Made by a program: the position numbers and the translations under genes. A model generated the notes under the pieces. The model was not told where the DNA came from. It searched no databases and saw only the letters and a list, made by a program, of their open reading frames with translations. A stretch of 24,000 bases of DNA from positions 301,458 to 325,457 of the forward strand of contig OY969929.1 in the NCBI GenBank assembly GCA_963704665.1, in the 5' to 3' direction. How positions within the stretch are numbered: position 1 is the first letter of the stretch; each line of letters begins with the position of its first letter. Positions 3,792 through 22,277 of this stretch are shown piece after piece. This DNA comes from an uncultured Actinomycetota bacterium (GTDB lineage: Bacteria; Actinomycetota; Actinomycetes; Propionibacteriales; Propionibacteriaceae).

Positions 3792-3815
3792 CCACCCCTA
3801 TGGGAGCCGCACGAG

Positions 3816-3848
3816 CAGCCGCCGCAGCGGCTGAGGCGACTGTCGCCT
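3816..3848 (+). terminator. two adjacent GC-rich hairpins downstream of the ATPase stop (candidate intrinsic terminator, no U-tract)
   Basis: CAGCCGC-cgca-GCGGCTG at 3816-3833 is followed directly by AGGCGA-ctg-TCGCCT at 3834-3848. They begin 25 nt after TGA 3789-3791. Confidence 0.3.
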
Positions 3849-4091
3849 CGCGAGGCCACGGAGTGAGCTCTATTCGACCGTAGCCAACTGCCCGAGTCGA
3901 AGTTGGCGGCGCAGGGGGAGGGGTCACTGATCGAGTCGCTCAGGAGCGGACCAAGGCGGGCGGTCGCAGCAGACGCTTTCTTCACGTTCAGGTCGGCCCC
4001 CTCACCGCCAACGGCGAGAAGGTGTAACCACGCAGTTGGTGCAAGTGTTCATCCAGCCGTCCCAAGGAGACGAAGGCGCCGCGCCAACGAC

Positions 4092-4108
4092 ATACCCCCC
4101 TTGGGTGT
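4092..4108. promoter_or_regulatory. degenerate CsoR-like operator (ATACCCC-CCT-TGGGTGT) upstream of the DUF6153-like gene
   Basis: It has the same 7-3-7 architecture as 1411-1427. The left half is 7/7 and the right half 5/7. It lies 59 nt upstream of GTG 4167. Confidence 0.4.
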
Positions 4109-4166
4109 GCGTCGTAGTCTGGGCAAGGAAGCGGTCAAGCGAGCGAAAGGCTGGAGGCGGTCGCCG

Positions 4167-4769
4167 GTGCGGGTTCACTGTGCTGCCAGCTCAAGCGGGT
4201 CATCTCGTTCGGTTGACTGGTGGCGACGCGTCGTCTTGGCTTCGGCTCTGTGGGTGGTGGTGCTGGGTGTGGTCGGGATGCATCAGCTCTCGCTCGGCCA
4301 CGACTTCGCCGCTCCGGCCGTCGCCGGCGGCCATTCTCATCGTGGCGCCGGGCACCCTGACAGCGTTCAGCATGACGTCGCGCAGCAGATGGACGGTGCC
4401 GACCGCGCTTCCGGAGGTCCGCACCAAGCGGGTCTAGGTGTGGACTCTGTCGGTGCGGGTGGTTACGCGATCGCATCTGCCGTGCACCACGAAACCAACG
4501 TCGGCCAGGTAGGTAGTGGGCTGACCGCCGCCTGGGGCTGGCCGTCGAGCGCGGAGGCCGATGCGTGTCCCGGCTGCGGCCCGCACAACATGGCGTTCAG
4601 CGCTTGCCTGCTGGCGATGACGCTGCTGGTGCTGACCTGGCTGCTGACGCCGCCACAGATGAGACACCTCCCACCCCGACGGGTGCGGCATACCGCGACC
4701 ATGGCCACACCAGTCGGTCGGCCACTGCCAGCAATGTCCCTGACGGAGCTTTCGATACTCCGCACCTGA
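4167..4769 (+). CDS. DUF6153-like membrane protein (Cu-island associated, His/Cys motifs)
   Basis: GTG 4167 is preceded by GGAGG (4153-4157, 9-nt spacing). An N-terminal TM ends in ..VVGMHQLS.., followed by His-rich HSHRGAGH. Further on come CPGCGPHNMAFSAC plus a second TM, and a C-terminal ..LTELSILRT typical of this actinobacterial family. Start is uncertain; the track ORF begins at TTG 3903. Confidence 0.55.
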   Translation: MRVHCAASSSGSSRSVDWWRRVVLASALWVVVLGVVGMHQLSLGHDFAAPAVAGGHSHRGAGHPDSVQHDVAQQMDGADRASGGPHQAGLGVDSVGAGGYAIASAVHHETNVGQVGSGLTAAWGWPSSAEADACPGCGPHNMAFSACLLAMTLLVLTWLLTPPQMRHLPPRRVRHTATMATPVGRPLPAMSLTELSILRT

Positions 4770-4888
4770 GCCGAACTGTGGAGCGACGCCTCTTCACCGA
4801 CCAGACAGCGCGCCCAACGGTCGCCCGGTTCGGTCAGCCCCTTCTGGGGACTCTTACACACCCGTGCACACACGAAGGACTGAACCAC

Positions 4889-5548
4889 ATGATGAAGCAG
4901 CATGCAGCAAAAATCACCCTGACCGCGTTGACCCTGGGCATCACCCTCGGGTTGGCCGGATGCGGGGGCAGTAACGACGCAGGCGGAATGGGTGGTACGG
5001 ACCATGGCGCGTCACCGATGTCGCAGATGCCGTCTACCAGCCCTAGCTCCACCGAGGCGTCGCCGAGCGCAAGCGCGGCGGCACAGTTCAACGACGCTGA
5101 CGTCATGTTCGTCCAAGGCATGATCCCGCACCACAAGCAGGCCGTCGAAATGAGCACCACCCTGGTGAACAAGTCCGGGATCACCGCCGACACGACCGCC
5201 CTCGCTCAGCAGATCCAAGCCGCCCAGCAGCCTGAGATCACGGCCATGGAGACCTGGCTCAAGACCTGGGGCAAGTCGGTCGACGAGGGCATGGGCGGCA
5301 TGAACCACGGCGGCATGGACGGGATGGCCACCGACGCGGAGATGAAGGCGTTCGACCAAGCAGACGGATCCGCCGCGGAGAAGCTGTACCTGGAGATGAT
5401 GACCAAGCACCACGAGGGCGCGATCATGATGGCCCAGATGGAGCAGAAGAGCGGCAAGAACTCAGACGCGATCGAGCTGGCGGAGAACATTGTCAGCAGT
5501 CAGCAGGCCGAGATCGACATCATGAAAGGGCTTCTTGCCGCCCTGTGA
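4889..5548 (+). CDS. DUF305 family lipoprotein (copper-resistance associated four-helix-bundle protein)
   Basis: ATG 4889 follows AAGGA (4875-4879). The signal peptide has the lipobox LAGC. Duplicated DUF305 motifs are present: MFVQGMIPHHKQAVEM and YLEMMTKHHEGAIMMA. A Met/Gly/His-rich linker reads MGGMNHGGMDGM. Confidence 0.9.
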   Translation: MMKQHAAKITLTALTLGITLGLAGCGGSNDAGGMGGTDHGASPMSQMPSTSPSSTEASPSASAAAQFNDADVMFVQGMIPHHKQAVEMSTTLVNKSGITADTTALAQQIQAAQQPEITAMETWLKTWGKSVDEGMGGMNHGGMDGMATDAEMKAFDQADGSAAEKLYLEMMTKHHEGAIMMAQMEQKSGKNSDAIELAENIVSSQQAEIDIMKGLLAAL

Positions 5549-7374: not shown

Positions 7375-7561
7375 AGGATGTGACGGGCTGACCAGCCTCA
7401 CCTGATGGGCCAGAGCCCGGACGCCACCAGCGGGTGTCCGGGCTCGTCTGCTCAACTGCGAGAAGCAGCCAACGAGCAGCCAAGCCCAAGAACGAAACGG
7501 GCCCGGGTGGTGCTGACTGAGACGTCCTCGAGCGTTGGCCGCACTTGCGCGGACGCTTCGC

Positions 7562-7612
7562 TCGCAACTCGTGATGCGTAGGTCGAGAGTTCGAATCTCT
7601 TAGGTGGCCCCA
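7562..7612 (+). repeat. degenerate direct repeat of the 3' half of tRNA-Thr (att-type island boundary)
   Basis: 7567-7612 is ACTCGTGATGCGTAGGTCGAGAGTTCGAATCTCTTAGGTGGCCCCA. The tRNA at 894-939 is ACTCGTAATGCGTAGGTCGAGAGTTCGATTCTCTCAGGCGGCCCCA. That gives ~41/46 identity, and no 5' half is present. Confidence 0.85.
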
Positions 7613-7692
7613 GTGAAAGGCCTAGCCGGAGGGCCTTGCTCCGCACGCATCGGTCATTCTCCATCGGACCGGCAGCCACGGCGCCAGCTGGC

Positions 7693-8045
7693 TCACTCGG
7701 AGTCGTCATCGAACAACCGTCTTATCCGAACGGCGGCAGCTCGGAACAGGTCTGGTGAGACGTGGCCGGAGGTGTTGAGCGTGACGCTGATCTGCGAGTG
7801 CCCCAGGGTCGGCATGACGACCCGAGCCGGTACTCCTTGGCTCAGCATCAACGCCACCGGCCGTGTGCCGAAGGTCGTCGCGCAGGACCCGCCGAAGTCC
7901 TGCACCATCGAGCAGCGCCATAGCCCTCCCAGCTCCTGGGCCTCACGACGCGGCCTGAGCGCATCAACGACAGAGTCGTGCAGCGGGATAGGACGGCGGG
8001 AGCGGGCAGTCTGGGGCTCGACCGGCTCGAGACCATGGCCCGAGC
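7693..8045 (-). pseudogene. tyrosine recombinase (integrase) C-terminal fragment, frameshifted, N-terminus replaced by IS3 relic
   Basis: Minus-strand translation: ..EPQTARSRRPIPLHDSVVDALRPRR..ALMLSQGVPARVVMPTLGHSQISVTLNTSGHVSPDL..* (stop 7693-7695). The box ..LRRVLRDDLRHTA.. is in another frame (track ORF 7706-7921). The catalytic Tyr position reads SGH rather than YSH. Confidence 0.75.
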
Positions 8046-8313
8046 GGTACTGGAGCACCTGTTGGCCCGCTCCAGCTCGGCGTTCTCCAGCGGCAGCCGT
8101 TTCAGCTCAGCCGACTCCTCCGACGCGGCGCCCGGGCGACGGCCCGCGTCGACCTCGCCCGCCGGACCCACCTGCGGATCGTCTCGGCCGCACCAATCCG
8201 GAGCAACCGGGCGACCTCGCTCATCGCCGCCCCCTCCGACTCGTGATCACCGGCCATCTCGACGACCATCCGACCGCCCGCTCACGCAACTCGGGCGGAT
8301 ACCTCTTGGGCGT
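8046..8313 (-). mobile_element. IS3-family OrfA (HTH/leucine-zipper transposase subunit) relic with several frameshifts
   Basis: The minus strand gives T-PKRYPPELRERAV | MVVEMAGDHESEGAAMSEVARLLRIGAAETIRRWVR | VDAGRRPGAASEESAELKRLPLENAELERAN in three different frames. The expected ATG reads ACG (8311-8313). No OrfB or DDE domain follows. Confidence 0.65.
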
Positions 8314-8498
8314 GCTTCCGGCCTTGACTCCAACCTCTCGACAACGGGAGGCTGCGGACACGCGGGTGCGGCTCACGAGTACCAGGTGTACGCGATCAGG
8401 ATCCCCTCACCGACGCCGAGCTGGTACAGATCTCCTGTCCACAGCATCCCTCGCCCGCCGCGCCCGGGGTCGAGTTCCTCGGGCATCCGACGGCGATG

Positions 8499-9569
8499 TC
8501 AGCCGGGGCGGAGGTCAGGAACGGCCCACAGCCCGCCAGACGCCGGGAACAGCACACCAGTCCGGTCGCCCGGCCGGAGGACAGTACCGAAGTGGGCTTG
8601 AACCTCCACTCTCGCTCGGCCGCCGTCACCAGTTGTGTCGAATTCCACGACGACATCGTGGTGCGGCCCAGACTGGCGGACCTGCACGACCAGCCCCTCG
8701 CGTGCAGTCGCCGTGCCAGGAGGAACGAGGGCAAGACGTTCTTTGCGAGCCAGAAGGATGGAAGGTCCGGCAACCTGCGCCGACGGCGGAACGGCGAACG
8801 TTCCCAGGGGTGAGTGGTGGACCCCGGAGCGGACGGTTCCGGGTAGCTCGTTGAACCCGCCCACCAGCCGGGCAACGGCCAACGTCCTCGGTGTCGTGTA
8901 AAGAGCCTGGACGCGGTCGAACTGCTCGATCCTACCGGCCACGAGCACGGCGACGCGTTCAGCCATCGCGGCTTCGTCGAGGTCATGGGTCACCATGACG
9001 ACCGTCGGGTCGAGGGCAGCACGGACCTCGGCGAGAAGCTGGTGCATCGAACTCCGCAGGGCGGTGTCGAGGGCACTGAACGGCTCGTCGAGCAGCATCA
9101 CCCGGGGGCGGGCGGCCAGAGCCCGGGCCAGGGCGACGCGCTGTTCCTGGCCACCGGACAGTTGCCCGGCCCGGCGACGACTGAGGTCCCCGAGCTCGAC
9201 CAGATCGAGGTACCTCTGAGCAGCCGCCCGGCGTTGAGACCGACTCCGACCCCGCAACCGGTCCGCGAAGGCCACGTTGTCCAGCACGCTGAGGTGCGGG
9301 AAGAGAAGCGGCTTCTGAAACATCACGGTCAGGTCGCGCCGCTCCGGTGGCACGCCGAGCATGCTCACCCCGTCGAGCAGCACGTCACCCGACGTGGCCG
9401 GCTCCAGGCCGGCGACGACCCGGAGGAGGGTCGACTTGCCGGACCCGGAGGGTCCGAGCACCGCGATCATCTCGCTGGCCCTGACGTCGAGACTGACGTC
9501 AGCCAGCGTCGGTCGCTCGTCGCCGCGGTAGTGATGGGTGATCGAGGCCAGGTCCAGGGGGGCGGTCAT
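8499..9569 (-). CDS. ABC transporter ATP-binding protein (YnjD/PotA/FbpC-like, with C-terminal TOBE-like domain)
   Basis: The start MTAPLDL (cat 9567-9569) overlaps the permease stop (ATGA). Motifs: Walker A GPSGSGKST, signature LSGGQEQRVALARAL, Walker B VMLLDEPFSALD, H-loop MVTHD. Confidence 0.9.
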   Translation of the reverse strand: MTAPLDLASITHHYRGDERPTLADVSLDVRASEMIAVLGPSGSGKSTLLRVVAGLEPATSGDVLLDGVSMLGVPPERRDLTVMFQKPLLFPHLSVLDNVAFADRLRGRSRSQRRAAAQRYLDLVELGDLSRRRAGQLSGGQEQRVALARALAARPRVMLLDEPFSALDTALRSSMHQLLAEVRAALDPTVVMVTHDLDEAAMAERVAVLVAGRIEQFDRVQALYTTPRTLAVARLVGGFNELPGTVRSGVHHSPLGTFAVPPSAQVAGPSILLARKERLALVPPGTATAREGLVVQVRQSGPHHDVVVEFDTTGDGGRARVEVQAHFGTVLRPGDRTGVLFPASGGLWAVPDLRPG

Positions 9570-10381
9570 CTGGACGCTGCCGTCGGACGACGCACGACGC
9601 AGGCGAAGACGGCCAGCGCCAGCAGCGGGGGCAGGCTGGCGGCGACGGACAGGGCCGCGATGAGCGGGTTGTTGCCGGATCCAGCCGCAGCGGCGCCGAT
9701 CAGCATGGGCATGGTGAGGATCTGACCGCCGCCGATGAGCAAGGTGACGGCGTAATCGCTCCATCCGACGAGGAACGCCAAGCCGACGCTTGCCACGAGA
9801 CCGGTGCTGGCGGCCGGAAGAGTGACATGCCAGCGGGCCTGCCGAGGGCTCGCGCCGAGCACTCGGGCCTGCTCCTCCAGCGCCGGGTCCAGGCGCAGAT
9901 AGGTGGCCCGCATGGTGAAGGTGGTGTACGGCAACGCGAACACGCTCAGGACCAGCACGACGGCGGCCTCACCCGGCACTCCCAGACGTAGGGTGACGAC
10001 GTCGAACCCCATGGCGACCGCGTACGGGGCCAGCACGACCGGGCCGAGCAGGACGACCGCCGGCAGTGCGGGACGGCGGACCAGGCGCCATCCCAGCGCA
10101 CGACCCGCGGCGGCCCCGAGGGGAGTGGCAACGAGGGCGACGGATACGCCCAGCAGCCCCGACCGGACCAGTGCGGCGATGGCACCCGAGTCCAGGGCCT
10201 CTTCCCAACCACGCAGTCCGAGGTCCTGCGGTAGCCGCGCAACCCCCGACCAGCGGGAGGTGCCGGCCCACAGCAGCAGCGGGGTCAAGGGGACCAGGAG
10301 CCAACCCAGCAGCAAAGCCGAGAGCAGCAGCTGCTGTGGTTGGACCTCCGTACGCCGGCGGCCGGCCAACGGGCTGGTCAC
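9566..10381 (-). CDS. ABC transporter permease (second membrane component)
   Basis: GTG 10379-10381 overlaps the upstream permease stop (GTGA). A multi-TM protein with an EAA-like loop, ..LDPALEEQARVLGASPRQARWHVTLP... Confidence 0.85.
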   Translation of the reverse strand: MTSPLAGRRRTEVQPQQLLLSALLLGWLLVPLTPLLLWAGTSRWSGVARLPQDLGLRGWEEALDSGAIAALVRSGLLGVSVALVATPLGAAAGRALGWRLVRRPALPAVVLLGPVVLAPYAVAMGFDVVTLRLGVPGEAAVVLVLSVFALPYTTFTMRATYLRLDPALEEQARVLGASPRQARWHVTLPAASTGLVASVGLAFLVGWSDYAVTLLIGGGQILTMPMLIGAAAAGSGNNPLIAALSVAASLPPLLALAVFACVVRRPTAASR

Positions 10382-11268
10382 CGGTCGACACCCAGCCGAT
10401 TCACCCAGGGAACGGCGAGCAACGTCGCGCACAGGGCCAGCCCGGTACCGACCACGGCGGTGGCGGCCGCCTGGGGTCGGGCGGCGATGTCGATATCGGT
10501 GAAGAGCCGGTAGGCCATCACCGGGAGCGGCTCAGGGTAGGCGCGGCCGAGTAACCGTGGCACTTCGTAGTTGCCGAGCGAGAAGAGGAACACGATCAAC
10601 GAGGTGGACGCCATCGCGGGTAACGCCAGCGGCAGCAGCACCCATCGCCACTGCGCAGCGGGAGCAGCGCCGAGCACCGCCGCCACTTCCCGCAGATCCG
10701 CGTACCGTGGCCCCACCGAGGCGACGATGACCAGGGCGACGAAGGCCGACTCCTTCCAGGCCAGCTCGATCACCGTGGCCCAGGGCCATGGCCCGCCGAC
10801 CAGCTCGGGCCAGGGCGTGCCCCGAGCCCCGAACCAGCGCTGGGCCAGGCCAGAATCAGAGAGCAGCAGCCCGGTCGTGACCGCACCGATCAGGTGCGGG
10901 ACGGTCAATACGGCGATGGCCAGCCCGAGTAGCAGTCGTCGGCCACGAACCGCGCAGAGCAGGACCGTGGCCAGGGTGAGACCGATCACCGCAGCCAGCA
11001 CAGTGGCGCCAGTGGACGCGAGCAGCGACTCGTGGGTGGCCACCCACAGGTCCCGGGCCTGGGTGGTGAAACCCTCGGCGCTCAGCCGAGGTTGCCCCAC
11101 CAGGGGCAACAACCCCAGACTCGTCGCCACGATCGCGACCAACGACGTGCCGGTCACCGTCACCACCAGCAGGACTGCCGGTACGACGAGATGGGCCTGG
11201 CCGAACGCCCTGTGGGCTCGCAGATCCCCAGCCCGCAGATCCGACGTACGGACGGGTGGCAGGTTCAC
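10378..11268 (-). CDS. ABC transporter permease (first membrane component)
   Basis: GTG 11266-11268 overlaps the SBP stop (GTGA). Six predicted TM helices. The EAA-like loop reads ..YADLREVAAVLGAAPAAQWRWVLLPL... Confidence 0.85.
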   Translation of the reverse strand: MNLPPVRTSDLRAGDLRAHRAFGQAHLVVPAVLLVVTVTGTSLVAIVATSLGLLPLVGQPRLSAEGFTTQARDLWVATHESLLASTGATVLAAVIGLTLATVLLCAVRGRRLLLGLAIAVLTVPHLIGAVTTGLLLSDSGLAQRWFGARGTPWPELVGGPWPWATVIELAWKESAFVALVIVASVGPRYADLREVAAVLGAAPAAQWRWVLLPLALPAMASTSLIVFLFSLGNYEVPRLLGRAYPEPLPVMAYRLFTDIDIAARPQAAATAVVGTGLALCATLLAVPWVNRLGVDR

Positions 11269-12506
11269 GATCCGGCTCCGAGCACATTCCTGCGCCAGCC
11301 GGCATCCAGCTTCGACACCCAGGACGAGGCCAGCTCGGGGTTGGCGTCCTGGGAGAGGACGTCGTAGGTCGGTACCACATCAGAGGTAGGAAGGCGTTCG
11401 AATCGCGCCTGGTCTGTGGGGGTCAGTCGACTGGTGTCGAGCACCGTGAACTGTCCCCAGGTGTCGGGATCGGCCTTGAGCGACTGCTGCTGGGGTGACA
11501 GGGCCAGGTTCGCCACCACCATCGCGCCCTCGGGGTCGCCCGCAGAGGAGGGAACGGCCAGGAAGCTGGCGTTCCCGAGGGTCCCCTCATCCAGGGGTAG
11601 CACCCGGGTGGTCTTCGGGAATGTGCCGTCCGCCACGAGCTTGGTGAGGGTCGCCGGCCCGTACGTCATGGTCATGTCGACCTGCCCGTCGGCGTAGAGC
11701 CGGTCCAGCGCGACCGCATCCCGGGGATAGGTCCCGCCCTGCCGCCACAACGATGGCTTGACTTCATCCAGCGCGTCCCAGAGGCCGGGGGTGAGCTGGT
11801 CGTAAGCGTCTTGGTCGAACTGCGCCGGGATCTTCGCATAACCGCCCGAGGTGGAGTAGAACACCCCGCGCAGGAACGCCGAGCCGGTGAAATCGGGCGG
11901 AGCAGGGTAGGTGAAGCGCCCGGGGTGGTCCTTCGCCCACTGCAGCACGCCTGACATCGACGTCGGTGGCGCGTCGACCCGCGCCGTGTCGTAGACCAAG
12001 GTGAACTGGGCCTTGTGCCACGGGGCCTCGCATCCCCCGACCTCGGTCCCGAAGTCCTGGCTGACCAGGGTGTCGTCGGGCGCGACGTAGGTCATGTTCG
12101 GCAGCAGAGAGGACCAGCCGCAGCGCCAGGCGTCGGCTTGCTTCCCGGTCGCGAAGTTGTCGCCGTTGACCCACACCAGGTCCACCGAGCCAGCGTCGGT
12201 ACCTGCCTGCCGCTCGGCCAGGATCCGGATCATGGCGTCGGAGGTGTCGGCCACCGGGACCCGCCGCAGGGTCACACCGAGCTTCGCCGCGGCCGGGACG
12301 AGGTCGTCGTCGACGTAGGCATTGCCCTGCTGGTCCCCGCCGTACATCCACAGGTCGACGGTCTGGCCCTGCGCCTGCTCGGAGATCTGGGACCAGGAGC
12401 GGGTCTCGGCCCCGGAGCCCACCGGTCGATCCGGTGCTGCGCAGGCCGAGACAGCCCATCCGAACAGTGCGGCAGCGAGAATGCATCGGGCCCGGCGGGC
12501 GGCCAT
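11265..12506 (-). CDS. ABC transporter substrate-binding lipoprotein, YnjB-type
   Basis: ATG 12504-12506 follows GGAGG (4-nt spacing). Lipobox VSAC. Blocks GQTVDLWMYGGD, GSVDLVWVNGDNF, HPGRFTYPAPPDFTGSAFL and VVANLALSPQQQ..KADP..WG resemble my recollection of the E. coli YnjB family. Needs HMM confirmation. Confidence 0.8.
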   Translation of the reverse strand: MAARRARCILAAALFGWAVSACAAPDRPVGSGAETRSWSQISEQAQGQTVDLWMYGGDQQGNAYVDDDLVPAAAKLGVTLRRVPVADTSDAMIRILAERQAGTDAGSVDLVWVNGDNFATGKQADAWRCGWSSLLPNMTYVAPDDTLVSQDFGTEVGGCEAPWHKAQFTLVYDTARVDAPPTSMSGVLQWAKDHPGRFTYPAPPDFTGSAFLRGVFYSTSGGYAKIPAQFDQDAYDQLTPGLWDALDEVKPSLWRQGGTYPRDAVALDRLYADGQVDMTMTYGPATLTKLVADGTFPKTTRVLPLDEGTLGNASFLAVPSSAGDPEGAMVVANLALSPQQQSLKADPDTWGQFTVLDTSRLTPTDQARFERLPTSDVVPTYDVLSQDANPELASSWVSKLDAGWRRNVLGAGS

Positions 12507-12609
12507 TGAACCTCCAGAGCGAAGAAGATGTCAGGTCGGGAACACTTCAGGAGGTCAGGGACTTCCCGTGGCAGGACCTTCCTCGTGCATCGTGACGTCA
12601 GGATCACTC

Positions 12610-13275
12610 ATGGAAAGAGCAATGCTGGTCAAGACAGGCGTTCTCGCGCTCATCATTGTCGGAGCGGTTGCGCTCGCATTGGTGTTCGGCACACCGGACA
12701 TCGAGGCGCTGAGGACGCGTGTCGAGGCAGCGGGAGCGTGGGGGCCGGCTCTGTTCTTCGCCCTCTACGTGGGGCTCTCCCTCGTTCCCTGCCCCAAAGC
12801 ACTCCTCACTGCTAGCGGAGGAGCACTGTTCGGGCTGGCCGCCGGTGCCGGGCTGTCTCTCAGCGCTGCCCTGATCGGGGCGGTCATCTCCTTCGGATTC
12901 GGGCGACTGCTCGGACGGGAGACCGTTGACCGGCTGATTCGAGGACGCTTGGCGCGGGTCGATGGACTCCTGAGGGACCGCGGTCTGTCTGCGGTCCTCC
13001 TCGTCCGCCTGGTGCCGTTGGTGCCCTATCTCGCGATCAACTACGCCTCGGGGCTCTCGGGGGTGAAGTTCCGCCACTTCGCGCTCGGGAGCGCACTGGG
13101 AATGGTGCCCGGGAGCCTCGCCTACGCGGCGCTCGGCGCGTACGGGACGAATCCCTGGGGCCTGGCCGCAGCCGGCTCGGCCTTGATCGTGCTCGCGGTC
13201 GGTGGGTCCTGGTTCGCGCGTCGGTTGGGGTCTCGCCACGGGGGCGTGACGGCCGCGAAGCGGGGCCATGCTTGA
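12610..13275 (+). CDS. TVP38/TMEM64 (DedA-superfamily, SNARE-associated PF09335-like) membrane protein
   Basis: ATG 12610. A multi-TM protein with the motifs ..LVPCPKALLTASGGALFGLAAGAGLS.. and ..LVRLVPLVPYLAINYASGLSGV.., typical of YdjX/YdjZ-type proteins. Confidence 0.85.
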   Translation: MERAMLVKTGVLALIIVGAVALALVFGTPDIEALRTRVEAAGAWGPALFFALYVGLSLVPCPKALLTASGGALFGLAAGAGLSLSAALIGAVISFGFGRLLGRETVDRLIRGRLARVDGLLRDRGLSAVLLVRLVPLVPYLAINYASGLSGVKFRHFALGSALGMVPGSLAYAALGAYGTNPWGLAAAGSALIVLAVGGSWFARRLGSRHGGVTAAKRGHA

Positions 13276-13975
13276 CACTGCGGCTCGACGGGTCCTGGAT
13301 CGGCCGTTGTCCGAGCTCGCGCGCCTGATCGACCGACCTTTCGTCAGCCCGAACGCGCTGACCCTGCTCGGCCTGGCGGCTGGGTTGGCCAGTGCTGCGA
13401 CCGCCGCATCGCAGGCGTGGTGGTGGTCCTTGGGGCTGTGGCTGTTGTCCCGGGCGATGGATGGACTCGACGGTCCTCTTGCTCGCCGACGCCGCGCCGC
13501 CGACGACGCCACGGAGGCGCGACGGTCGTCGGCCGGCGGCTTCCTCGACATCACCGCCGACATCACCGTGTACGGCGTGACCGTGGTCGGAGTCGCCATC
13601 GGGGCCACCCGGCAGTACGACGCGGCGTGGTTGCCCTTCCTGCTGGTCCTGTTGGCCTACTACGTGAACGGAGCAGCGTTCCTGGCCTTCTCCTCCATAG
13701 CCGAGCGGACCGGGCGCCAACGCGACGATGGTCGCTCTCTGAGCTTCCTCGGCGGACTGGCGGAGGGCGTCGAGACCATTGCCGTGCACTCTTTGTGGTT
13801 GGTTCTCCCCGGCCACGCCGAGATCATCGCCACGGTATGGGCCGCCTTCGTCGGGTTGAGCGCTGTCCAGCGGATCGTGGCCGGATTCAAGGACCTGTCC
13901 TCATCGACGGCACCCGACGCTCCCGCGCCTTGCTGTCGCACGTCAGCGTCCGCTGCTGACCCGCCACCTCCGTAG
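13268..13975 (+). CDS. CDP-alcohol phosphatidyltransferase family protein (YnjF-like)
   Basis: ATG 13268 overlaps the upstream stop by 8 nt. The signature D-x2-DG-x2-AR...G-x3-D-x3-D is present as AMDGLDGPLARRR...GGFLDITADITVY. Multi-TM. Confidence 0.85.
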   Translation: MLDTAARRVLDRPLSELARLIDRPFVSPNALTLLGLAAGLASAATAASQAWWWSLGLWLLSRAMDGLDGPLARRRRAADDATEARRSSAGGFLDITADITVYGVTVVGVAIGATRQYDAAWLPFLLVLLAYYVNGAAFLAFSSIAERTGRQRDDGRSLSFLGGLAEGVETIAVHSLWLVLPGHAEIIATVWAAFVGLSAVQRIVAGFKDLSSSTAPDAPAPCCRTSASAADPPPP

Positions 13976-15421
13976 CCGGGCCAGCACGCCCAGGGCACCG
14001 TGGGTGGCCGGACGGGCGAGTTGATCCTGCACGTCAGAAATCGCTGCGTTCCACGGGCCGTCGTTGTAGGTGGGGTACGCGTGGGTCACGCGAGCGAGAT
14101 CACGGGTCGTGAGGCCGCGGCTGATCGCGAGCGCCATCTCGGCCAGGGTCTCCCCGGCGCGTGGTCCGACCACGGTCGCCCCGAGAACCCGACCGTGCTT
14201 GTCGATGACGAGTCGGGTGAAACCGCTGGTCGCGCGCTCCGTCACCGCCCGGTCGACATGGGAGTGGGGCCAGTCGACCGTATGCAGCCCGCGTGGTGCC
14301 CGAGCAGTCTCGAGGCCGACCGCAGCCACTTCTGGATCGGTGAACGTGACCCGGGGCACCACCGTCAGGTCGACCGTGCGGCGCACCCCGAGGATGGCGT
14401 TCGACGCGGCGAGGCTCGCGTGCACACCGGCGGTGTGGGTGAACTGAGGGTGACCAGTGAGGTCGCCTGCCGCCCAGACATGGTGGTTGCTGCTGCGCAG
14501 ATGAGCGTCAACCATCACGAATCCGCGGTCGTCGACGGCCACACCCGCGGCGCTCAAACCGAGATCGTCGGTACGAGGTGTTCGACCCACCGCCACGAGG
14601 AGGCAGGAGAACGCGATCTCCTGGCCGCTTTCCAGGTGCAGCACCCCGGAGGCTGGACCGTCGGGTCGGACCTTCGTGACACCGGAGCCGGTGTAGATGT
14701 CGACACCGTCGGCGATCAATGAGCGGGTGAGTTCGGCTGCCGCTCGGGGGTCTTCGCGCGGCAGGATCCGGTCCGCGCCCTCGACGACTGAGACCGAGCT
14801 TCCGAGGCGAGCGAAGGCCTGACCCAACTCGCATCCGATGCTGCCGCCGCCGAGCACCACCAGATCAGCGGGAAGCTCGTCGAGTCCCCAGACGGTCTCA
14901 CTGGTCAGGAAGTCGACATCGCGGAGGCCCGGGACCGACGGCACCGCCGGTCCGGCGCCGGTAGCAACCAGTGCCTGTCGAAACCGAACGGTCGTGCCGT
15001 CCAGGTCGGCCGAGTGCGGTCCCGTGAATCGAGCGGTCGCTCGGCGGACGGTGACCGAGGCGTTCTCGAGGGCTTCGACGGAGTCGACGGGGGCGATGTG
15101 TTGGATCGTCGCGCGGACGTGGTCCATCACCTCGGCGAAGTCAACCGAGATCTCCCCGGTCCTGATGCCGAACTCGCGACTTCTGCGGGCGCTGGCGGCG
15201 ACGCCGGCCGCGGCCAGCAGCGCCTTCGACGGAACGCATCCGGTCCACAAGCAGTCACCTCCGGTGCGATCACGCTCCACCAGGAGCACGTGGGCGCCGA
15301 GCCGCGCAGCGGTCTTGGCGCCGACGATCCCGGCTGTCCCGCCTCCGACGACGAGGAAGTCCCAGGGCTCGTCCTGGGCGGCGGCGGAGTTTGCCGTCGG
15401 GCTCGACTGGTCGGCGGTCAT
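13943..15421 (-). CDS. class-I pyridine-nucleotide-disulfide oxidoreductase (FAD; Lpd/MerA-like, DedA-associated clade)
   Basis: The start MTADQSS (cat 15419-15421) overlaps the anti-sigma stop (ATGA). Motifs: FAD GxGxxG VVGGGTAGIVGA, redox CxxxxC GGDCLWTGCVPSK, NAD site VVLGGGSIGCE, and a C-terminal dimerisation domain with THAYPTYND. Confidence 0.9.
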   Translation of the reverse strand: MTADQSSPTANSAAAQDEPWDFLVVGGGTAGIVGAKTAARLGAHVLLVERDRTGGDCLWTGCVPSKALLAAAGVAASARRSREFGIRTGEISVDFAEVMDHVRATIQHIAPVDSVEALENASVTVRRATARFTGPHSADLDGTTVRFRQALVATGAGPAVPSVPGLRDVDFLTSETVWGLDELPADLVVLGGGSIGCELGQAFARLGSSVSVVEGADRILPREDPRAAAELTRSLIADGVDIYTGSGVTKVRPDGPASGVLHLESGQEIAFSCLLVAVGRTPRTDDLGLSAAGVAVDDRGFVMVDAHLRSSNHHVWAAGDLTGHPQFTHTAGVHASLAASNAILGVRRTVDLTVVPRVTFTDPEVAAVGLETARAPRGLHTVDWPHSHVDRAVTERATSGFTRLVIDKHGRVLGATVVGPRAGETLAEMALAISRGLTTRDLARVTHAYPTYNDGPWNAAISDVQDQLARPATHGALGVLARLRRWRVSSGR

Positions 15422-15696
15422 GGGGAGTCCTCGTCGCTGATGGTGGACAGGTACTCCCGCAGCCGATCGACGGACTGGGGGTCGACTCGTGAGACTCCTG
15501 ACCACCGGGACAGTGCCCGGTGCAACATCCGGTGTTCGGACAGGACGCGGGTGCACTTCTCGCAGGTCGCCAGGTGGACTTCGAGCCGCACGATTTCCCC
15601 GGGCGTGAGTGGGGCAGCCGGGTCGGCGTCGAGGTAGCGTTGGATGCGTCGTGCGGACCAGTGGCACGTCAGCATCTGACGCAGAGTCCCGATCAT
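15418..15696 (-). CDS. soluble zinc-binding anti-sigma factor (ZAS, RsrA/RshA-like; no TM segment)
   Basis: 92 aa. ATG 15694-15696 overlaps the sigma-factor stop (ATGA). H41-x3-C45-x2-C48 (HLATCEKC) plus Cys11 (LTCHW) parallel the RsrA C11/H37/C41/C44 arrangement. Confidence 0.8.
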   Translation of the reverse strand: MIGTLRQMLTCHWSARRIQRYLDADPAAPLTPGEIVRLEVHLATCEKCTRVLSEHRMLHRALSRWSGVSRVDPQSVDRLREYLSTISDEDSP

Positions 15697-16256
15697 GACG
15701 GATCTCCTTGAATGAGTGGGCTGGTTCGGAGCGACGTGCGGATGCGGTTCCGCGCACGACTGAGTCGTGACATCACGGTGCCGATGGGAACGCCCAACAG
15801 CGCGGCCGCTTCGGCATAGCTCAGGTCGTGGACGTCGACGAGGATGAGCGCGCTCCGGAAACGGGGATCCAGAGCACGGATCGCGAGGTCGAGATCGCCG
15901 TCGAGCTGGTGATCCACGAAGCTGTCTTCGGCGCTTTGCAGCTCTGGCTCTCCGAAGGCCGGTCGAGCGCTGCGGATGAGTTCCCAGTCGCCGACGGTTC
16001 CCGGTCGCCGGCGGCGGTGCAGGTTGGCATTGGTGTTGCGCAGGATGGTCAGCAGCCACGCCCGCGGATGTCGACCGTCGAAGCGATCGATCGCCCGGTA
16101 GGAACGCAGCAACGTCTCCTGCACGAGGTCCTCCGCGTCGGCCTTGTTCGTGGTGATCGACGAGGCCACGCGCAGAAGCACTTCGATCTCGGGCTCCACC
16201 AGCTGCCGGAAGGACTCTTTCCGGTCGGCGTCGACCGGTGGTGGGGAATCCGTCAC
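15693..16256 (-). CDS. ECF (sigma-70 family group 4) RNA polymerase sigma factor
   Basis: Region 2: DAEDLVQETLLRSYRAIDRFDGRHPRAWLLTILRN. Region 4: SYAEAAALLGVPIGTVMSRLSRARNRI. The start is placed at GTG 16254-16256 (187 aa). Alternatives are GTG 16335-16337 and ATG 16461-16463. Confidence 0.85.
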   Translation of the reverse strand: MTDSPPPVDADRKESFRQLVEPEIEVLLRVASSITTNKADAEDLVQETLLRSYRAIDRFDGRHPRAWLLTILRNTNANLHRRRRPGTVGDWELIRSARPAFGEPELQSAEDSFVDHQLDGDLDLAIRALDPRFRSALILVDVHDLSYAEAAALLGVPIGTVMSRLSRARNRIRTSLRTSPLIQGDPS

Positions 16257-16666
16257 GACGAGGAAACCCGCTGAGCGCGCGACGCGATTCCCGCGACGTA
16301 CGGCGGTGTTGAGTTCTGTGGATCCGACATCGGTCACCCTCCTGGCAGTGCGCTCTGCGGCTGGTCCGTCGCCGGTCCGAGACGCCACCTTTCCAGATGT
16401 CGGGCCCGACGTCGCGATGTGATCACTGCGCTGGTCCCGCGGAGAGCAGCCACCACCCGACATCGCCGAGTCCGGTACCCCCTCTTCCGTCGCTACCGCC
16501 GCGACGCCCACGCCCTGCCGCCTCCTCCGCCGGTCGGGCAGATCTGACGGATCGTTTTCCCTCCTTTGTGGACGCCGGGAAGGGATCAGGCTTGCCACCG
16601 GGTTTCCCTCCTGACGGTTCCGTCGAGGACCCGCCTTCACGACCAGCCGAGCCACCAGGAGTCCTC

Positions 16667-17134
16667 ATGCGCACACTCAGCCTTCCGTTCCTCGACCACT
16701 TCCGGGGCCTCGCGCCCCTGGTGCTCCGCCTGGGTGTCGGCCTGGTCTTCGCAGTCCACGGTTTCAGCAAGCTGACCAACGGACCCGCCCAGTTCTCCTC
16801 GATGTTGACCGGACTCGGGGTCGGAGCGCCTCTGGTCTTTGCCTGGCTCGTCACCATCGCCGAGCTCGTCGGCGGATTGCTGATCATCGTCGGGCTGTTG
16901 ACTCGGCTGGCGACCCTCCCCTTGATCGCCACCCTGGCCGGGGCCATCCTGCTGGTCAAGGTCGACGTGGGGATCATCGCTCCCATGGGCTCTCCCATGC
17001 CGGGGGCCGAGGTCGACATCGCGTTGCTCGCGGGTCTGGTTGCCTTGCTGTTCATGGGACCGGGTCGGCTCTCGATCGACCGCATGGTCGGCGTCGAAGC
17101 CCAAGCGGACCGCTCGTTTGCCGAAGCTCACTGA
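16667..17134 (+). CDS. DoxX family membrane protein
   Basis: ATG 16667 follows AGGAG (16657-16661). 155 aa with four hydrophobic helices and a DoxX-like N-terminus, LVLRLGVGLVFAVHGFSKL. Confidence 0.85.
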   Translation: MRTLSLPFLDHFRGLAPLVLRLGVGLVFAVHGFSKLTNGPAQFSSMLTGLGVGAPLVFAWLVTIAELVGGLLIIVGLLTRLATLPLIATLAGAILLVKVDVGIIAPMGSPMPGAEVDIALLAGLVALLFMGPGRLSIDRMVGVEAQADRSFAEAH

Positions 17135-17260
17135 TCAGAGTCATCGGTGCACGCCGAGGCTGGGACGCAACACAGCGCGCACGCAGCCCACTCCGCGCAC
17201 CTGCCGTAGCGACCTGCCCAGGATCAGTGATGACCCAGGCCCAACCCGTCCACCGCGAGC

Positions 17261-17794
17261 GTGGCGGTGATGCGGCGGCCCGGCTGCCCGTCCTGTACAG
17301 CTCTGCGGCGGGGCCTGAGCCGTGCCGGTGTGTCCACGACCGAGCACGACATCTGGTCTTCGAAGGCCGCCGCAGCTCGGGTGCGCAGAGCCACGGGCGG
17401 TAACGAGGCAGTTCTCACCGTCTTCGTGGGCGACCGGGCGCTGGAGAACCCGACCGTTCGTCCAGTGGTCGACGCGATCACGGGGGTCGATCCCGCGTAC
17501 CAGCCCTTTCTGGCGGCTGCGGGCCGGACACGAGCCGGCGACGCGAGGACTCATCTCGCAGGGCTCATCCGGACGCTGGTGATCGCGGTGTTGTGGACCA
17601 GGTCGTCGCCCGGAGCCCGGCAACCACCGGGCATGTTGCGCCGCTCCTCCTGTCGGCGGCGTGGCCATGGGTTGTTGGTCAAGACGCTTCATCCCCCGAT
17701 CCCTCCGCTCGACGGAGGATCGTGTTCGCCGCCATCATCGGCCTCGGGACCACCGGGGCGCTCACGGCGGCGTTGGCTGTGGCCGGTCGCCTGA
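17261..17794 (+). CDS. mycoredoxin/glutaredoxin-like protein (CPSC active site) with an anomalous ~100-aa C-terminal extension; 3' extent uncertain
   Basis: The first ~75 aa, AVMRRPGCPSCTALRRGL...DIW...AAARVRRATGGNEAVLTVFVGDRALENP, match the mycoredoxin/NrdH-like pattern. The remainder is low-complexity and overlaps a TM-rich alternative frame (17593 onward). Confidence 0.5.
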   Translation: MAVMRRPGCPSCTALRRGLSRAGVSTTEHDIWSSKAAAARVRRATGGNEAVLTVFVGDRALENPTVRPVVDAITGVDPAYQPFLAAAGRTRAGDARTHLAGLIRTLVIAVLWTRSSPGARQPPGMLRRSSCRRRGHGLLVKTLHPPIPPLDGGSCSPPSSASGPPGRSRRRWLWPVA

Positions 17795-18047
17795 GCGGAC
17801 CGACGTGGACGGGACCGGGACGTCCTGTGGCGCAGTCGCTCCTGCTTGCCCTGGTCGGCGCTGTCGTCGCCACGGCAAGGGGGAGTGACGCGCGCCGGTC
17901 AGGTGGTCCGAGACGAAGCCATCCGCTACCGACACCCGTCTCCGCTGGCCAGGCGCCCCAAGAGCTCGGGTCGCCTTCTGGAATGGGATCCATGTCGACT
18001 CACCTACTCGGAGTCGAGAACAGTTGCGCGCTGAGCCGTGGGAAGCC

Positions 18048-19124
18048 TTACATCTGGTACATCCTCAACCACCGCCGATCGATGGACCGCTTGAGTCGCA
18101 GGGGCCCGACTCCGTACCACCACCAGCGCCCCCACACCGCCAGCCCCATCCCGCCACCGAGATCGAGGATCGACAGCGAACGGCGTCGAGGCCGGTACGT
18201 CGGAAGAGCGTCACCCTTGAGTCGGGCGAGCAGGCTACGGAGCAGCACCGGTCCTTGCCGCACCCCATGCACTCCCACGCGAGGCAGCGGATGCGGAAGG
18301 AAGAGCGCGCAATCGCCTACTGCGTAGACGTCGTCGTGGTCGACATGTTGGAGCGTGGCCCGGACGGGGACACCGCGGGCATCGCCGAGTCCGGTCTCGG
18401 CGATCAGTGGGGGTGCCGTGAGCCCGGTCGCGAGCACGGCCATGTCATAGGACATCTCGAACGCGTCACCGACTAACGCACGCTCGCCGAGGTCACGCAC
18501 CATGGACCTGGTACGGACGTTCACGCCGCGTTCGGCGAGCAGCCGGAGAACCCGCTGACGCGCTCCTCCGGACAGTTCGGCACCGATGACGGTGCCGGAG
18601 TCGACCAGGCAGACTCGGGCCACGTCCGGTCGCACCGACAGGTGAGTCGCCAGCTCCAGACCGGATCCGCCACCACCGACTACGACCACCGTTGCACCGT
18701 TGCCGTTCACCGGACTCTGCAGCCGGGCGCCGACCTCGGCGAGATCACTCAACGGTTTCACCTTGAGGACAGCCGGATCGACGTGCATCCCCACCGGCGC
18801 AACCACACTACCGATGTTGATCGAGAGCACGTCGTAGGTCAGGTTCCCGCCGTCCGACGTGGTTGCGACCCGGGTCTGGAGATCGAGGGATTCCAGCGTG
18901 CCCTCGTGAAACTCGATCATCGACGCGTCGGCCAGGGCTCGCACATCGATACGTCCGGTATCGCCGGACAGCACGCCGGCGGCTGTCGCCGACGCGACCC
19001 CGCTGTAGTGGAAGAATCGAGGTGCCAGCAGATGAACCCGGTATCCAGCCGAGATCAGTTTCGCGGCCTGCTTCACCACGTACAGGTGGGCGTGACCAGC
19101 CCCGACCAAGAGCAGAACCGTCAT
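18048..19124 (-). CDS. FAD-dependent pyridine-nucleotide-disulfide oxidoreductase (NDH-2 / sulfide:quinone-oxidoreductase-like)
   Basis: 358 aa. The N-terminus VLLLVGAGHAHL is a GxGxxH-type FAD fold. A second dinucleotide site is VVVVGGGGSGLE. VYAVGDCA is present. The amphipathic, Trp-rich C-terminus (GRWWWYGV..WLRMYQM) suggests membrane association. Confidence 0.85.
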   Translation of the reverse strand: MTVLLLVGAGHAHLYVVKQAAKLISAGYRVHLLAPRFFHYSGVASATAAGVLSGDTGRIDVRALADASMIEFHEGTLESLDLQTRVATTSDGGNLTYDVLSINIGSVVAPVGMHVDPAVLKVKPLSDLAEVGARLQSPVNGNGATVVVVGGGGSGLELATHLSVRPDVARVCLVDSGTVIGAELSGGARQRVLRLLAERGVNVRTRSMVRDLGERALVGDAFEMSYDMAVLATGLTAPPLIAETGLGDARGVPVRATLQHVDHDDVYAVGDCALFLPHPLPRVGVHGVRQGPVLLRSLLARLKGDALPTYRPRRRSLSILDLGGGMGLAVWGRWWWYGVGPLRLKRSIDRRWLRMYQM

Positions 19125-19331
19125 TCGGCGACCTGGGGACGGTCAGTGAGCGAGAGAACTGGATCCTCGGCGAACCGCGGTGGAAAGAATTCATCGAACG
19201 CACCGTCATGGTGTCGTCCCGCCCTCCACCGCACCCGCGTCCGAACGCGGAAAACCGGGGTTGTCGAGTTGCCGGGCTGTGCGCAGGTGGTCATCAACCT
19301 GGGAAGAAGAGTCGAGCGCCTCACGTGCGGT

Positions 19332-19952
19332 CTACAGCCGCTCGGGGTCAGCTGGAGGTACCGCCGCGCTGAGCTGCAAGACCGTGTCGACGCTCCAGCC
19401 GTCCGCGGCGTTGCTGCCATAGCAGCAGTCCCGGATCCCGCCGTCGGGATCGAGGAGGAAGTCAGCGGGCAGCCCGAGATGATCACCGATGGTCAGTGAG
19501 CCCTGCAGCGAACGGTGCCCTACGACGCTGCGGACGTAGGTGGCGAGTGCCGCGGGGTGGAGCAGCGACCGCACGCTCGAGGTCACCTCGAATTCGGCGT
19601 ACCACCGCTCCTCCGGGTCGGGCACCGTCGGTAGCCCCAACTGGCGCTCATGCGTGCGCACCTGGGCTTCGGTGGACTTGAACACGACGAACTCAGTGAC
19701 CCCCGCCGCCTCGAGCTCCGCCCGGCGCTGGGTGAACGGCCGTAGGTGCTCCGCGCAGATCGGGCAGCCGGCGAAGCGACGCACCTGCAGGTGAGTGAGC
19801 CCGTCGGCCGCCGGGAACCGCAGCGGGCCTTCGGTCGTGTCGACCGTCCGGACGTCGACACGCTCCCCGACCAGCCTGGTCATGACGTGCTGCTCAGCAT
19901 CATGGGTCACACCGTAGTTCGGCCGGACGAGGACGCCCGACAGGTCAATCAC
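19332..19952 (-). CDS. peroxiredoxin-like (AhpC/TSA-redoxin fold) protein
   Basis: ..LQVRRFAGCPICAEHLRPF....GVTEFVVFKS....LPADFLLDPDGGI.. shows a thioredoxin-fold CxxC and a typical peroxiredoxin-like family layout. GTG 19950-19952 or ATG 19881-19883 could be the start. Confidence 0.7.
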   Translation of the reverse strand: MIDLSGVLVRPNYGVTHDAEQHVMTRLVGERVDVRTVDTTEGPLRFPAADGLTHLQVRRFAGCPICAEHLRPFTQRRAELEAAGVTEFVVFKSTEAQVRTHERQLGLPTVPDPEERWYAEFEVTSSVRSLLHPAALATYVRSVVGHRSLQGSLTIGDHLGLPADFLLDPDGGIRDCCYGSNAADGWSVDTVLQLSAAVPPADPERL

Positions 19953-19990
19953 GTCTCCGTGGGGTTTCCCCCGAATCGTGGGGGGTCTTC

Positions 19991-20792: not shown

Positions 20793-20845
20793 CTGTCAGA
20801 TCGACTCACCGCCGAAACGCGGTACCACCTCTCTGGCCATCGCAC

Positions 20846-22212: not shown

Positions 22213-22277
22213 GGGGAACTCCTTGCGGTCGAGGGCGCCGGGATCAGGGATGGTGAGCTGCAGCGCTGCTGCGGGGG

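Follow-up and report, generated by a model that had tools for sequence, protein, structure and literature searches.

In Escherichia coli K-12, the genes ydjX, ydjY, ydjZ, ynjA, ynjB, ynjC, ynjD and ynjE follow one another on one strand and ynjF lies on the other, as the first-pass annotation of the DNA described here had correctly stated. We examined a related set of genes in a 24,000-nt stretch of contig OY969929.1 (positions 301,458 to 325,457; hereafter the window; GC content ~68%) from an uncultured actinobacterium of the Propionibacteriaceae. Its core comprises a YnjBCD-type ATP-binding cassette (ABC) importer, a TVP38-type membrane protein, a YnjF-family CDP-alcohol phosphotransferase and a flavoprotein disulfide reductase. 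The window and E. coli loci share the families of YnjB (36% identity), YnjF (31%) and YdjX/YdjZ (30–31%), together with an ABC permease and ATPase. The E. coli locus differs in its fused permease, its short ATPase and its two TVP38 genes, and in encoding YdjY, the AhpD-like protein YnjA and the periplasmic rhodanese YnjE.

A described pathway with this kind of logic is that of phosphatidylcholine synthase (Pcs), in which a binding-protein-dependent ABC importer supplies choline and an enzyme of the CDP-alcohol phosphatidyltransferase family condenses it with CDP-diacylglycerol. The module proposed here would follow the same logic of import and then attachment. It differs from Pcs in that its transferase scores only 19 bits against the Pcs model (cutoff 400) and its importer belongs to another family, and neither a DedA protein nor a reductase is dedicated to Pcs. 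Four further enzymes, namely phosphatidylinositol phosphate (PIP) synthase (PgsA1), archaetidylinositol-phosphate synthase, DIPP synthase (DIPPS) and AF2299, have the same fold as YnjF and the same D-x2-DG-x2-AR...G-x3-D-x3-D motif. These inositol-phosphate transferases differ from YnjF in gene context, and the YnjF family is found in E. coli, Vibrio and Bacillus.

The remaining parts of the module also have described relatives. A 2023 paper presented the COG0398 subfamily of DedA proteins as putative phospholipid scramblases and identified pyridine nucleotide-disulfide oxidoreductases as their commonest fusion partners; YnjF and YnjBCD are absent from that paper. The TVP38 protein and reductase of the window resemble a split form of such a fusion, and the function is putative in both. 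A sigma/anti-sigma pair encoded beside the reductase shares with SigR-RsrA (SigH-RshA) a soluble CHCC anti-sigma factor with C11 and an HxxxCxxC motif, an extracytoplasmic function (ECF) sigma factor, and GGAAT/GTT promoter elements with 17–19 nt spacing. It differs as a local paralogue that is encoded with the reductase, scores below the SigH and RsrA cutoffs and has putative redox sensitivity. The reductase itself shares its class-I fold and CxxxxC active site with reductases of the MerA, RclA and Har types, and differs from MerA in having neither an NmerA domain nor a C-terminal Cys pair. The parts are known families and the import-then-attach logic has precedent; the module is not a member of a characterised system. 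Full-text literature searches with gene names and family combinations returned no functional study, in agreement with an earlier statement that no such system had been described.

Results

YnjF genes keep the same partners through rearrangement

To survey the neighbourhoods of YnjF, we scanned one genome per GTDB species with the YnjF alignment, confirmed 436 of the first 600 pattern hits as relatives (at least 436 in all) and took the best 80 loci. Partners were counted when they lay within 8 kb of YnjF, in the 55 loci that extended at least 7 kb on both flanks. A YnjB-type binding protein was present in 53 of these 55 loci, as was a permease; an ATPase was found in 52, a TVP38 gene in 48 and a MerA-like disulfide reductase in 46, making the reductase as conserved as TVP38 in YnjF loci. 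The ABC importer and TVP38 occurred jointly in 46 loci, and all five partners in 42.

At least six different gene arrangements were found. TVP38 lay before YnjF, after it or on both sides; the importer was divergent in most actinobacteria and co-directional in two loci (L026 and L056); in three others (L066, L067 and L070) the order was YnjF, binding protein, permease, ATPase, TVP38; and in Proteobacteria YnjF followed immediately after the ATPase. Because the gene set was kept through this rearrangement, selection is indicated rather than mere inheritance. The best 80 loci came mostly from Actinomycetota, and included Solirubrobacterales, one metagenome-assembled genome (MAG) labelled Thermomicrobiales, Vibrio, Psychromonas, Paraglaciecola, Aliiglaciecola and a Comamonadaceae MAG.

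Together with the loci described in the next section, these results leave us highly confident that the YnjBCD-type importer, YnjF, a COG0398 TVP38 protein and usually a disulfide reductase form one functional unit. The first-pass annotation had already argued, from this locus and that of E. coli, that four of the families make up a conserved unit rather than a chance neighbourhood; loci anchored on YnjF and loci anchored on the binding protein both bear this out, and the combination recurs in other genomes rather than being confined to this one. The linkage is asymmetric: YnjF is nearly always accompanied by the importer, whereas the importer also occurs in loci that lack YnjF.

Several other genes recur beside the module. 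Their products are AhpD/CMD-like proteins (E. coli YnjA among them), HAD type II hydrolases and OsmC fusions; homologues of the TIGR03169-type oxidoreductase of the window are found in 21–23 related loci, on an IncC plasmid and in a Cohnella locus. In 26 of the 80 loci, a Cys-rich protein of 494 aa that contains a Cx3Cx2C motif is encoded just beyond the ABC ATPase (for example at 3463–4947 on the + strand of L035). It has no Pfam match and matches weakly to 'radical SAM (seleno)protein TrsS'; it is not encoded in the window, where 7400–8499 contains no conserved open reading frame (ORF).

Loci anchored on the binding protein extend the module to plasmids and other phyla

A tblastn search with the binding protein identified 95 records of plasmids or chromids, spread over many phyla. 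Drawing on these and on protein look-ups, we assembled 17 loci in diverse genera, counting YnjF if it lay within 9–10 kb; it was present in nine. In a plasmid of Bacillus sp. CMF21 the whole set is a single operon with the order TVP38, reductase, binding protein, permease, permease, ATPase, YnjF. In Ilyobacter (Fusobacteriota) one strand carries TVP38, rhodaneses, a heterodisulfide reductase (Hdr)-like oxidoreductase, a rhodanese-VTT fusion, the ABC importer and YnjF. Pseudoalteromonas and Catenovulum have a TonB receptor, a VTT-reductase fusion, DUF547, the ABC importer, YnjF and a gene of the OlsE-like fatty-acid hydroxylase family. The other YnjF-carrying loci are those of Aliiroseovarius, Klebsiella, Cohnella, Loktanella and an E. 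coli IncC plasmid, pVPS18EC0505-1 (L084, 917–12516), which carries the whole module plus DoxX, ECF sigma, CMD and HAD type II genes.

The module spans Actinomycetota, Bacillota, Fusobacteriota, and Alpha-, Beta- and Gammaproteobacteria (at least four phyla), as well as plasmids of Enterobacterales, one of them typed IncC; it is horizontally mobile. Identical binding-protein matches (H3–H17) were found on further plasmids of E. coli, Klebsiella, Salmonella, Citrobacter and Providencia, and many of the plasmid-bearing isolates came from cattle, veal or mastitis milk.

Importers of this family have a broader distribution than YnjF. The loci without YnjF include two of Deinococcus, and in one of these (Deinococcus taeanensis; L093, 9051–9938) a lysophospholipid acyltransferase gene overlaps the start of the binding-protein gene and replaces YnjF. 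In Chondrinema (Bacteroidota) and a Vicinamibacteraceae MAG (Acidobacteriota) the importer stands with a TonB receptor, radical SAM/SPASM and DUF2064 proteins (L087 and L094), and in Paracoccus and a MAG of actinobacterial type it stands with a nucleoside hydrolase (L092 and L099); Sinorhizobium meliloti and Kiloniella complete the list. An arsenosugar or selenium pathway, suggested by neighbours of the DUF2064/TIGR04282-like and radical SAM types and by selenoprotein-family names, was not adopted: those partners occur in YnjF-less branches, and their scores lie below the cutoffs.

The importer and the transferase belong to the YnjB and YnjF families

The binding protein matched NF008633 (PRK11622), the NCBI model for YnjB, with 455.7 bits (cutoff 203) over residues 18–407 of 413, and aligned to E. 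coli YnjB at E=3e-67. The possibility, raised beforehand, that it would group with binders of the PotD, ThiB or FbpA type was not borne out: no match to these or to other NCBIfam binding-protein models was found at E<0.01, and a sequence search of the PDB gave none at E<=1. Its AlphaFold2 (AF2) model has a predicted local distance difference test (pLDDT) value of 91.5 and resembles only generic cluster-D binders among the solved structures (template modelling (TM) score ~0.6, 12–19% identity); Trp, Phe, Asp and Glu are frequent among its invariant residues. The neighbouring genes complete a type-I ABC importer, with BPD_transp_1 permeases and an ABC_tran ATPase coupled to the binding-protein gene; the match of permease 1 to BPD_transp_1 (23.8 bits) is slightly below the cutoff of 26.4. 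Identity as a thiamine importer is unsupported, as there is no ThiB match at the above threshold and no thiamine pyrophosphate (TPP) riboswitch; no riboswitch of any kind was found in the window or in seven further loci.

The transferase aligned end to end with E. coli YnjF (218 aligned positions, E=1e-25) and exceeded the PF01066 cutoff (36.4 versus 22 bits). The superfamily motif D-x2-D-G-x2-A-R ... G-x3-D-x3-D is present, and D65, D68, G69, R73, G90, D94 and D98 are invariant across a 54-member family alignment, with A72 nearly so (>=90%). Its AF2 model (pLDDT 84.4) has seven helices. Both the family profile and the model are nearest to PIP synthases, AF2299 and DIPPS (16–19% identity, Foldseek TM 0.55–0.67); DIPPS is the best profile match, and 4mnd and 6h53 were matched at 4.8e-19 and 3.5e-14. 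PgsA (profile E=3.7e-5) and the serine synthases (~1e-8) are both missing among the listed fold matches, and the PDB sequence search gave no transferase match.

Against housekeeping models (PgsA, PssA, PIP synthase, Pcs and ClsA) the window transferase stayed far below every cutoff: archaetidylinositol-phosphate synthase was best (42.7 bits, cutoff 180), followed by PIPSynth (23, cutoff 170), pssA (19.8, cutoff 107) and Pcs (19.4, cutoff 400), and the pgsA model gave no match. All 54 family members likewise fell below the cutoffs of the models for PIP synthase and the other inositol-phosphate transferases named above. These scores exclude a housekeeping PgsA or PssA identity, which the first-pass annotation had named as an outcome that would undo its proposal; the enzyme is instead YnjF-like. 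No curated model exists for the YnjF clade; the assignment is made by similarity to E. coli YnjF and by gene context. The family is small and divergent: among 1.84 billion representatives at 50% identity, only 21 matched at E<=1e-30 and 375 at E<=1e-10. The same set contains predicted fusions (P0145, P0245, P0263 and P0175) of the types VTT+YnjF, Pyr_redox_dim+YnjF, YnjF+FMO-like flavoprotein and YnjF+TonB receptor, some of which are probably gene-calling artefacts. The window enzyme also carries a 22-aa C-terminal tail that is missing in relatives of ~213 aa.

The TVP38 protein and the reductase are a split form of a known fusion

The TVP38 protein aligned to YdjX (E=7e-27) and YdjZ (E=2e-25), and matched PF09335 with 88.4 bits (cutoff 33.9), compared with only 21 bits for the DedA equivalog (cutoff 236). 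These scores place it in the COG0398 DedA subfamily, nearer to YdjX/YdjZ than to the DedA proteins of COG0586. The reductase, whose translation contains a CLWTGC redox motif (CxxxxC), scored 379 bits against the MerA model (cutoff 454) and 189 bits, also below cutoff, against the RclA model; Pfam found no HMA (NmerA) domain in it, and no C-terminal Cys pair appears in the translation. With these three features set against it, mercuric reductase was ruled out as its identity.

The VTT-reductase fusion of Pseudoalteromonas aligns to both proteins of the window, and on this alignment the two are the split form of a TVP38-reductase fusion. Fusions of this kind lie within the module in Pseudoalteromonas, in Catenovulum and on the IncC plasmid, where the fusion is split by IS150. 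In the anaerobe Ilyobacter, the place of the flavoprotein is held by an 864-aa FAD/FeS protein with a CCG domain of the heterodisulfide-reductase type, encoded beside the rhodanese-VTT fusion.

A thiol-stress switch is predicted to control the importer

The reductase gene (13943–15421), the most consistent additional partner, and the sigma/anti-sigma operon that includes it had both been missed in the first-pass annotation. The anti-sigma factor has C11, H41, C45 and C48, to be compared with C11, H37, C41 and C44 of RsrA, in which C11 is needed for redox sensing. It scored 20.1 bits against the RsrA equivalog TIGR03988 (cutoff 62.5) and is a relative of RsrA in pattern only. The models nearest to the ECF sigma factor include SigH_actino (101 bits, below cutoff), and similar sigma genes are present in 33–35 of the 80 loci.

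The window contains three copies of a promoter-like motif, GGGAAK-N17-19-GTTYCC, where 0.04 would be expected, although two of these sites served to define it: 31 nt upstream of the binding-protein start on the strand of that gene, 5 nt upstream of the GTG start of the sigma gene, and upstream of DoxX. Across 81 sequences (the 80 related loci and the window) we counted 60 occurrences, compared with 1.5 expected. Of these, 35 lie 31–193 nt upstream of the binding-protein gene on the same strand (34 of them no more than 92 nt away), and a local sigma factor is also encoded in 25 of the loci with the motif in this position. Most related loci have GGAAC-N17-18-GGGTTCCC upstream of their sigma genes; SigR promoters have the form GGAAT/GTTG. 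The importer and the sigma/anti-sigma/reductase operon are predicted from these sites to belong to a single ECF regulon of the disulfide-stress type, and in this bacterium the module appears to be wired to a thiol-stress switch. The RsrA-type anti-sigma factor and the SigR-like motif thus lend independent support to the earlier suggestion of a tie to sulfur or thiol stress.

The motif at 12538–12567 is quasi-palindromic and could also bind a dimeric regulator, or act as a weak promoter reading divergently into the TVP38-ynjF pair. A DoxX gene flanks the module on the IncC plasmid as well.

What the module may do

A sequence of events that could unite these parts would begin with thiol-oxidative stress, which would oxidise the RsrA-like CHCC anti-sigma factor and free the ECF sigma factor. 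The importer would take up a polar head-group precursor; YnjF would move the phosphatidyl group from CDP-diacylglycerol to the imported precursor; the TVP38 protein would carry the product lipid across the membrane; and the membrane-associated reductase would hold in the reduced state a disulfide or chalcogen group carried by the head group or its precursor. We put forward this specific chemistry of import, transfer, flipping and reduction tentatively, and regard it as rather doubtful in its particulars. Taken as a whole, an envelope module working by such a mechanism is the best explanation we can offer, at a likelihood somewhat short of even. A link to lipids is favoured by the nearness of YnjF to PIP synthases, AF2299 and DIPPS in profile and model, by the acyltransferase in the place of YnjF in Deinococcus taeanensis and by the OlsE-like hydroxylase adjacent to the module in Alteromonadales.

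Several observations weigh against it. The E. coli K-12 locus has no reductase and no ECF sigma gene and keeps ynjF on the opposite strand, and the E. coli operon and ynjE are activated by FNR, that is, anaerobically. The 80 loci, being mostly from Actinomycetota, are not independent samples. YnjF is missing in eight of the 17 loci anchored on the binding protein, where other partners or none are present instead, and a rough neighbour-joining tree does not separate YnjF-less binding proteins from YnjF-linked ones. With regard to regulation, the DoxX site is the sole independent match to the motif in the window, TVP38-ynjF has no identified promoter, and on the + strand the motif is degenerate (GGGAAC-N18-CTTCCC).

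Scavenging and reduction of a low-molecular-weight thiol, disulfide or chalcogen (S/Se/Te) compound, with YnjF in a side role, is a somewhat unlikely but substantial alternative. The oxidised compound would enter through the importer, or through TVP38 working as a carrier of small molecules; the reductase would reduce it, and rhodanese and AhpD-like proteins would handle sulfur or selenium. The presence of the reductase in 46 of 55 loci fits this, as do the Hdr-like CCG oxidoreductase that substitutes for it, together with rhodaneses, in Ilyobacter, the YnjE rhodanese in E. coli and Klebsiella, the TonB receptors upstream of the module in marine Gram-negative bacteria, and the thiol-stress regulation. 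It also gains from accessory proteins with selenium-related NCBIfam names (YnjA as a YciW-related (seleno)protein, a SelL-related redox protein, TIGR03169 and 'diclust_near_Sec'), but such selenoprotein names denote Cys/Sec redox families and not selenium metabolism per se. It leaves the most tightly linked partner, a CDP-alcohol phosphotransferase, unexplained: YnjF is translationally coupled to TVP38 here, and in Proteobacteria and Firmicutes it either follows the ATPase directly or directly precedes the binding protein. The other lipid enzymes found in its place are likewise left without a role. Uptake of a riboside or nucleoside-like compound, which organisms with YnjF would turn into a lipid or a soluble phosphodiester and others would catabolise, is unlikely. 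It would account for a binding protein, 44% identical to that of the window, whose operon also encodes a nucleoside hydrolase, PNP and DeoC, and for a similar cluster in Paracoccus; the top fold matches include a dinucleotide-binding protein, and the YnjF family finds its best profile match in DIPPS, an enzyme with a soluble product. The fold matches, however, are all weak and generic (TM ~0.6), neither the window nor most YnjF loci encode a cytidylyltransferase or a nucleoside enzyme, and the reductase and TVP38 find no explanation.

The gene set could instead consist of two unrelated units that travel together, a nutrient importer and a membrane-lipid housekeeping pair, which we consider extremely improbable. 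Many YnjB homologues carry the JGI/KEGG-style label 'putative thiamine transport', the nearest solved binders include thiamine-, polyamine-, iron- and aminoethylphosphonate-binding proteins, and the importer occurs without YnjF in eight of 17 contexts. These points are outweighed by the co-localisation in 53 of 55 loci, which survives rearrangement, unification into one operon and passage through several phyla, when adjacency within 8 kb by chance would be ~1% (a rough estimate rather than a computed one, reflecting the few PF01066 genes among thousands). The model scores point the same way, with neither a ThiB, PotD or FbpA match at E<0.01 nor a riboswitch in the window or seven further loci on the importer side, and a YnjF below the cutoff for all housekeeping synthase models. 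A bolder variant of the lipid proposal, which we rate as very unlikely, is that the module makes a previously undescribed phospholipid whose imported head group bears a redox-active thiol or chalcogen. YnjF would join this head group to CDP-diacylglycerol, TVP38 would shuttle the lipid between the leaflets, and the reductase, tethered or fused to TVP38, would re-reduce it on the cytoplasmic side. Were this so, the product would be a lipid-borne redox buffer at the membrane's outer face, induced by disulfide stress and spread by plasmids, and would provide the first defined bacterial substrate for COG0398 DedA proteins.

Apart from its exact chemistry, the module ties the orphan E. coli genes ydjX, ydjZ, ynjB, ynjC, ynjD and ynjF into one testable pathway. 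It also supplies the COG0398 DedA/TVP38 proteins, which are related to TMEM41B and VMP1 of eukaryotes, with specific enzymatic partners in the form of a dedicated CDP-alcohol phosphotransferase and a disulfide reductase. Plasmid carriage together with the predicted thiol-stress control suggests a transferable trait of envelope protection. Its present value lies in a sharply defined set of experiments and not in a mechanism, the chemistry of which we infer.

Gene layout and flanking genes

The six genes of the importer, TVP38 and ynjF lie exactly where the first-pass annotation had placed them (Table 1). Read directly from the sequence, the importer genes overlap at GTGA (11265–11268), GTGA (10378–10381) and ATGA (9566–9569), and the binding protein, the two permeases and the ATPase are translationally coupled. 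The longest ORF of the ATPase extends to 9764, and its start is likely the coupled ATG at 9569 instead; that of permease 2 is likely at 10381 and not at 10432. A divergent gap of 103 nt (12507–12609) separates the importer from TVP38, whose gene overlaps ynjF by 8 nt (13268–13275). The reductase, anti-sigma and sigma genes are chained by ATGA overlaps (junctions at 15418 and 15693). The ynjF and reductase genes are convergent, and their 3' ends overlap by 33 nt (13943–13975).

Table 1. Features of the module and its surroundings in the window
Feature	Position	Strand	Basis or remark
ABC ATPase, long form, 357 aa, YnjD counterpart	8499..9569	-	Pfam ABC_tran 119 bits
ABC permease 2, second half of YnjC	9566..10381	-	BPD_transp_1 45.7 bits
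ABC permease 1, first half of YnjC	10378..11268	-	BPD_transp_1 23.8 bits and NCBIfam permease matches
YnjB-family substrate-binding lipoprotein	11265..12506	-	NF008633; Pfam SBP_bac_8 68.9 bits
ECF/SigR-like promoter motif GGGAAG-N18-GTTCCC	12538..12567	-	31 nt upstream of binding-protein start
TVP38/COG0398 DedA-family membrane protein, YdjX/YdjZ type	12610..13275	+	VTT_dom PF09335 88.4 bits
YnjF-family CDP-alcohol phosphotransferase	13268..13975	+	CDP-OH_P_transf PF01066 36.4 bits
Class-I flavoprotein disulfide reductase, MerA-like, not MerA	13943..15421	-	Pyr_redox_2 214.6 bits, Pyr_redox_dim 82 bits
Soluble 92-aa CHCC zinc anti-sigma factor, RsrA-like	15418..15696	-	zf-HC2 21.6 bits
ECF sigma factor	15693..16256	-	Sigma70_r2 and r4_2
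Autoregulatory promoter motif GGGAAT-N19-GTTTCC, upstream of sigma gene	16262..16292	-	Pattern match
Third motif copy, upstream of DoxX	16577..16607	+	Pattern match
DoxX-family membrane protein, accessory, predicted regulon member	16667..17134	+	DoxX 69.3 bits
TIGR03169-type ('N-terminal to SelD') FAD oxidoreductase, accessory	18048..19124	-	198.9 bits, below cutoff of 310

Translations place rhodanese-domain ORFs at 21622–23944, 7.6–10 kb from ynjF. A functional link between them and the module had been suggested beforehand and did not hold up, as the rhodaneses of the window are common to only two to four of the 80 related loci; inside the module itself, rhodaneses are found in Ilyobacter, E. 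coli and Klebsiella. The genes of the right flank (16397–23944) are together typical of the detoxification of reactive sulfur: besides DoxX and the TIGR03169 oxidoreductase, they encode TauE, a thioredoxin-fold protein related to SelL, an MBL-plus-rhodanese protein and two rhodanese ORFs. Of these, only the TIGR03169 oxidoreductase is conserved with the module. Toward the left end, a tRNA-Thr(CGT) gene (864–939, + strand) lies directly before a copper P-type ATPase (1437–3791) and a long run of stress genes, and may mark the edge of an integrated island.

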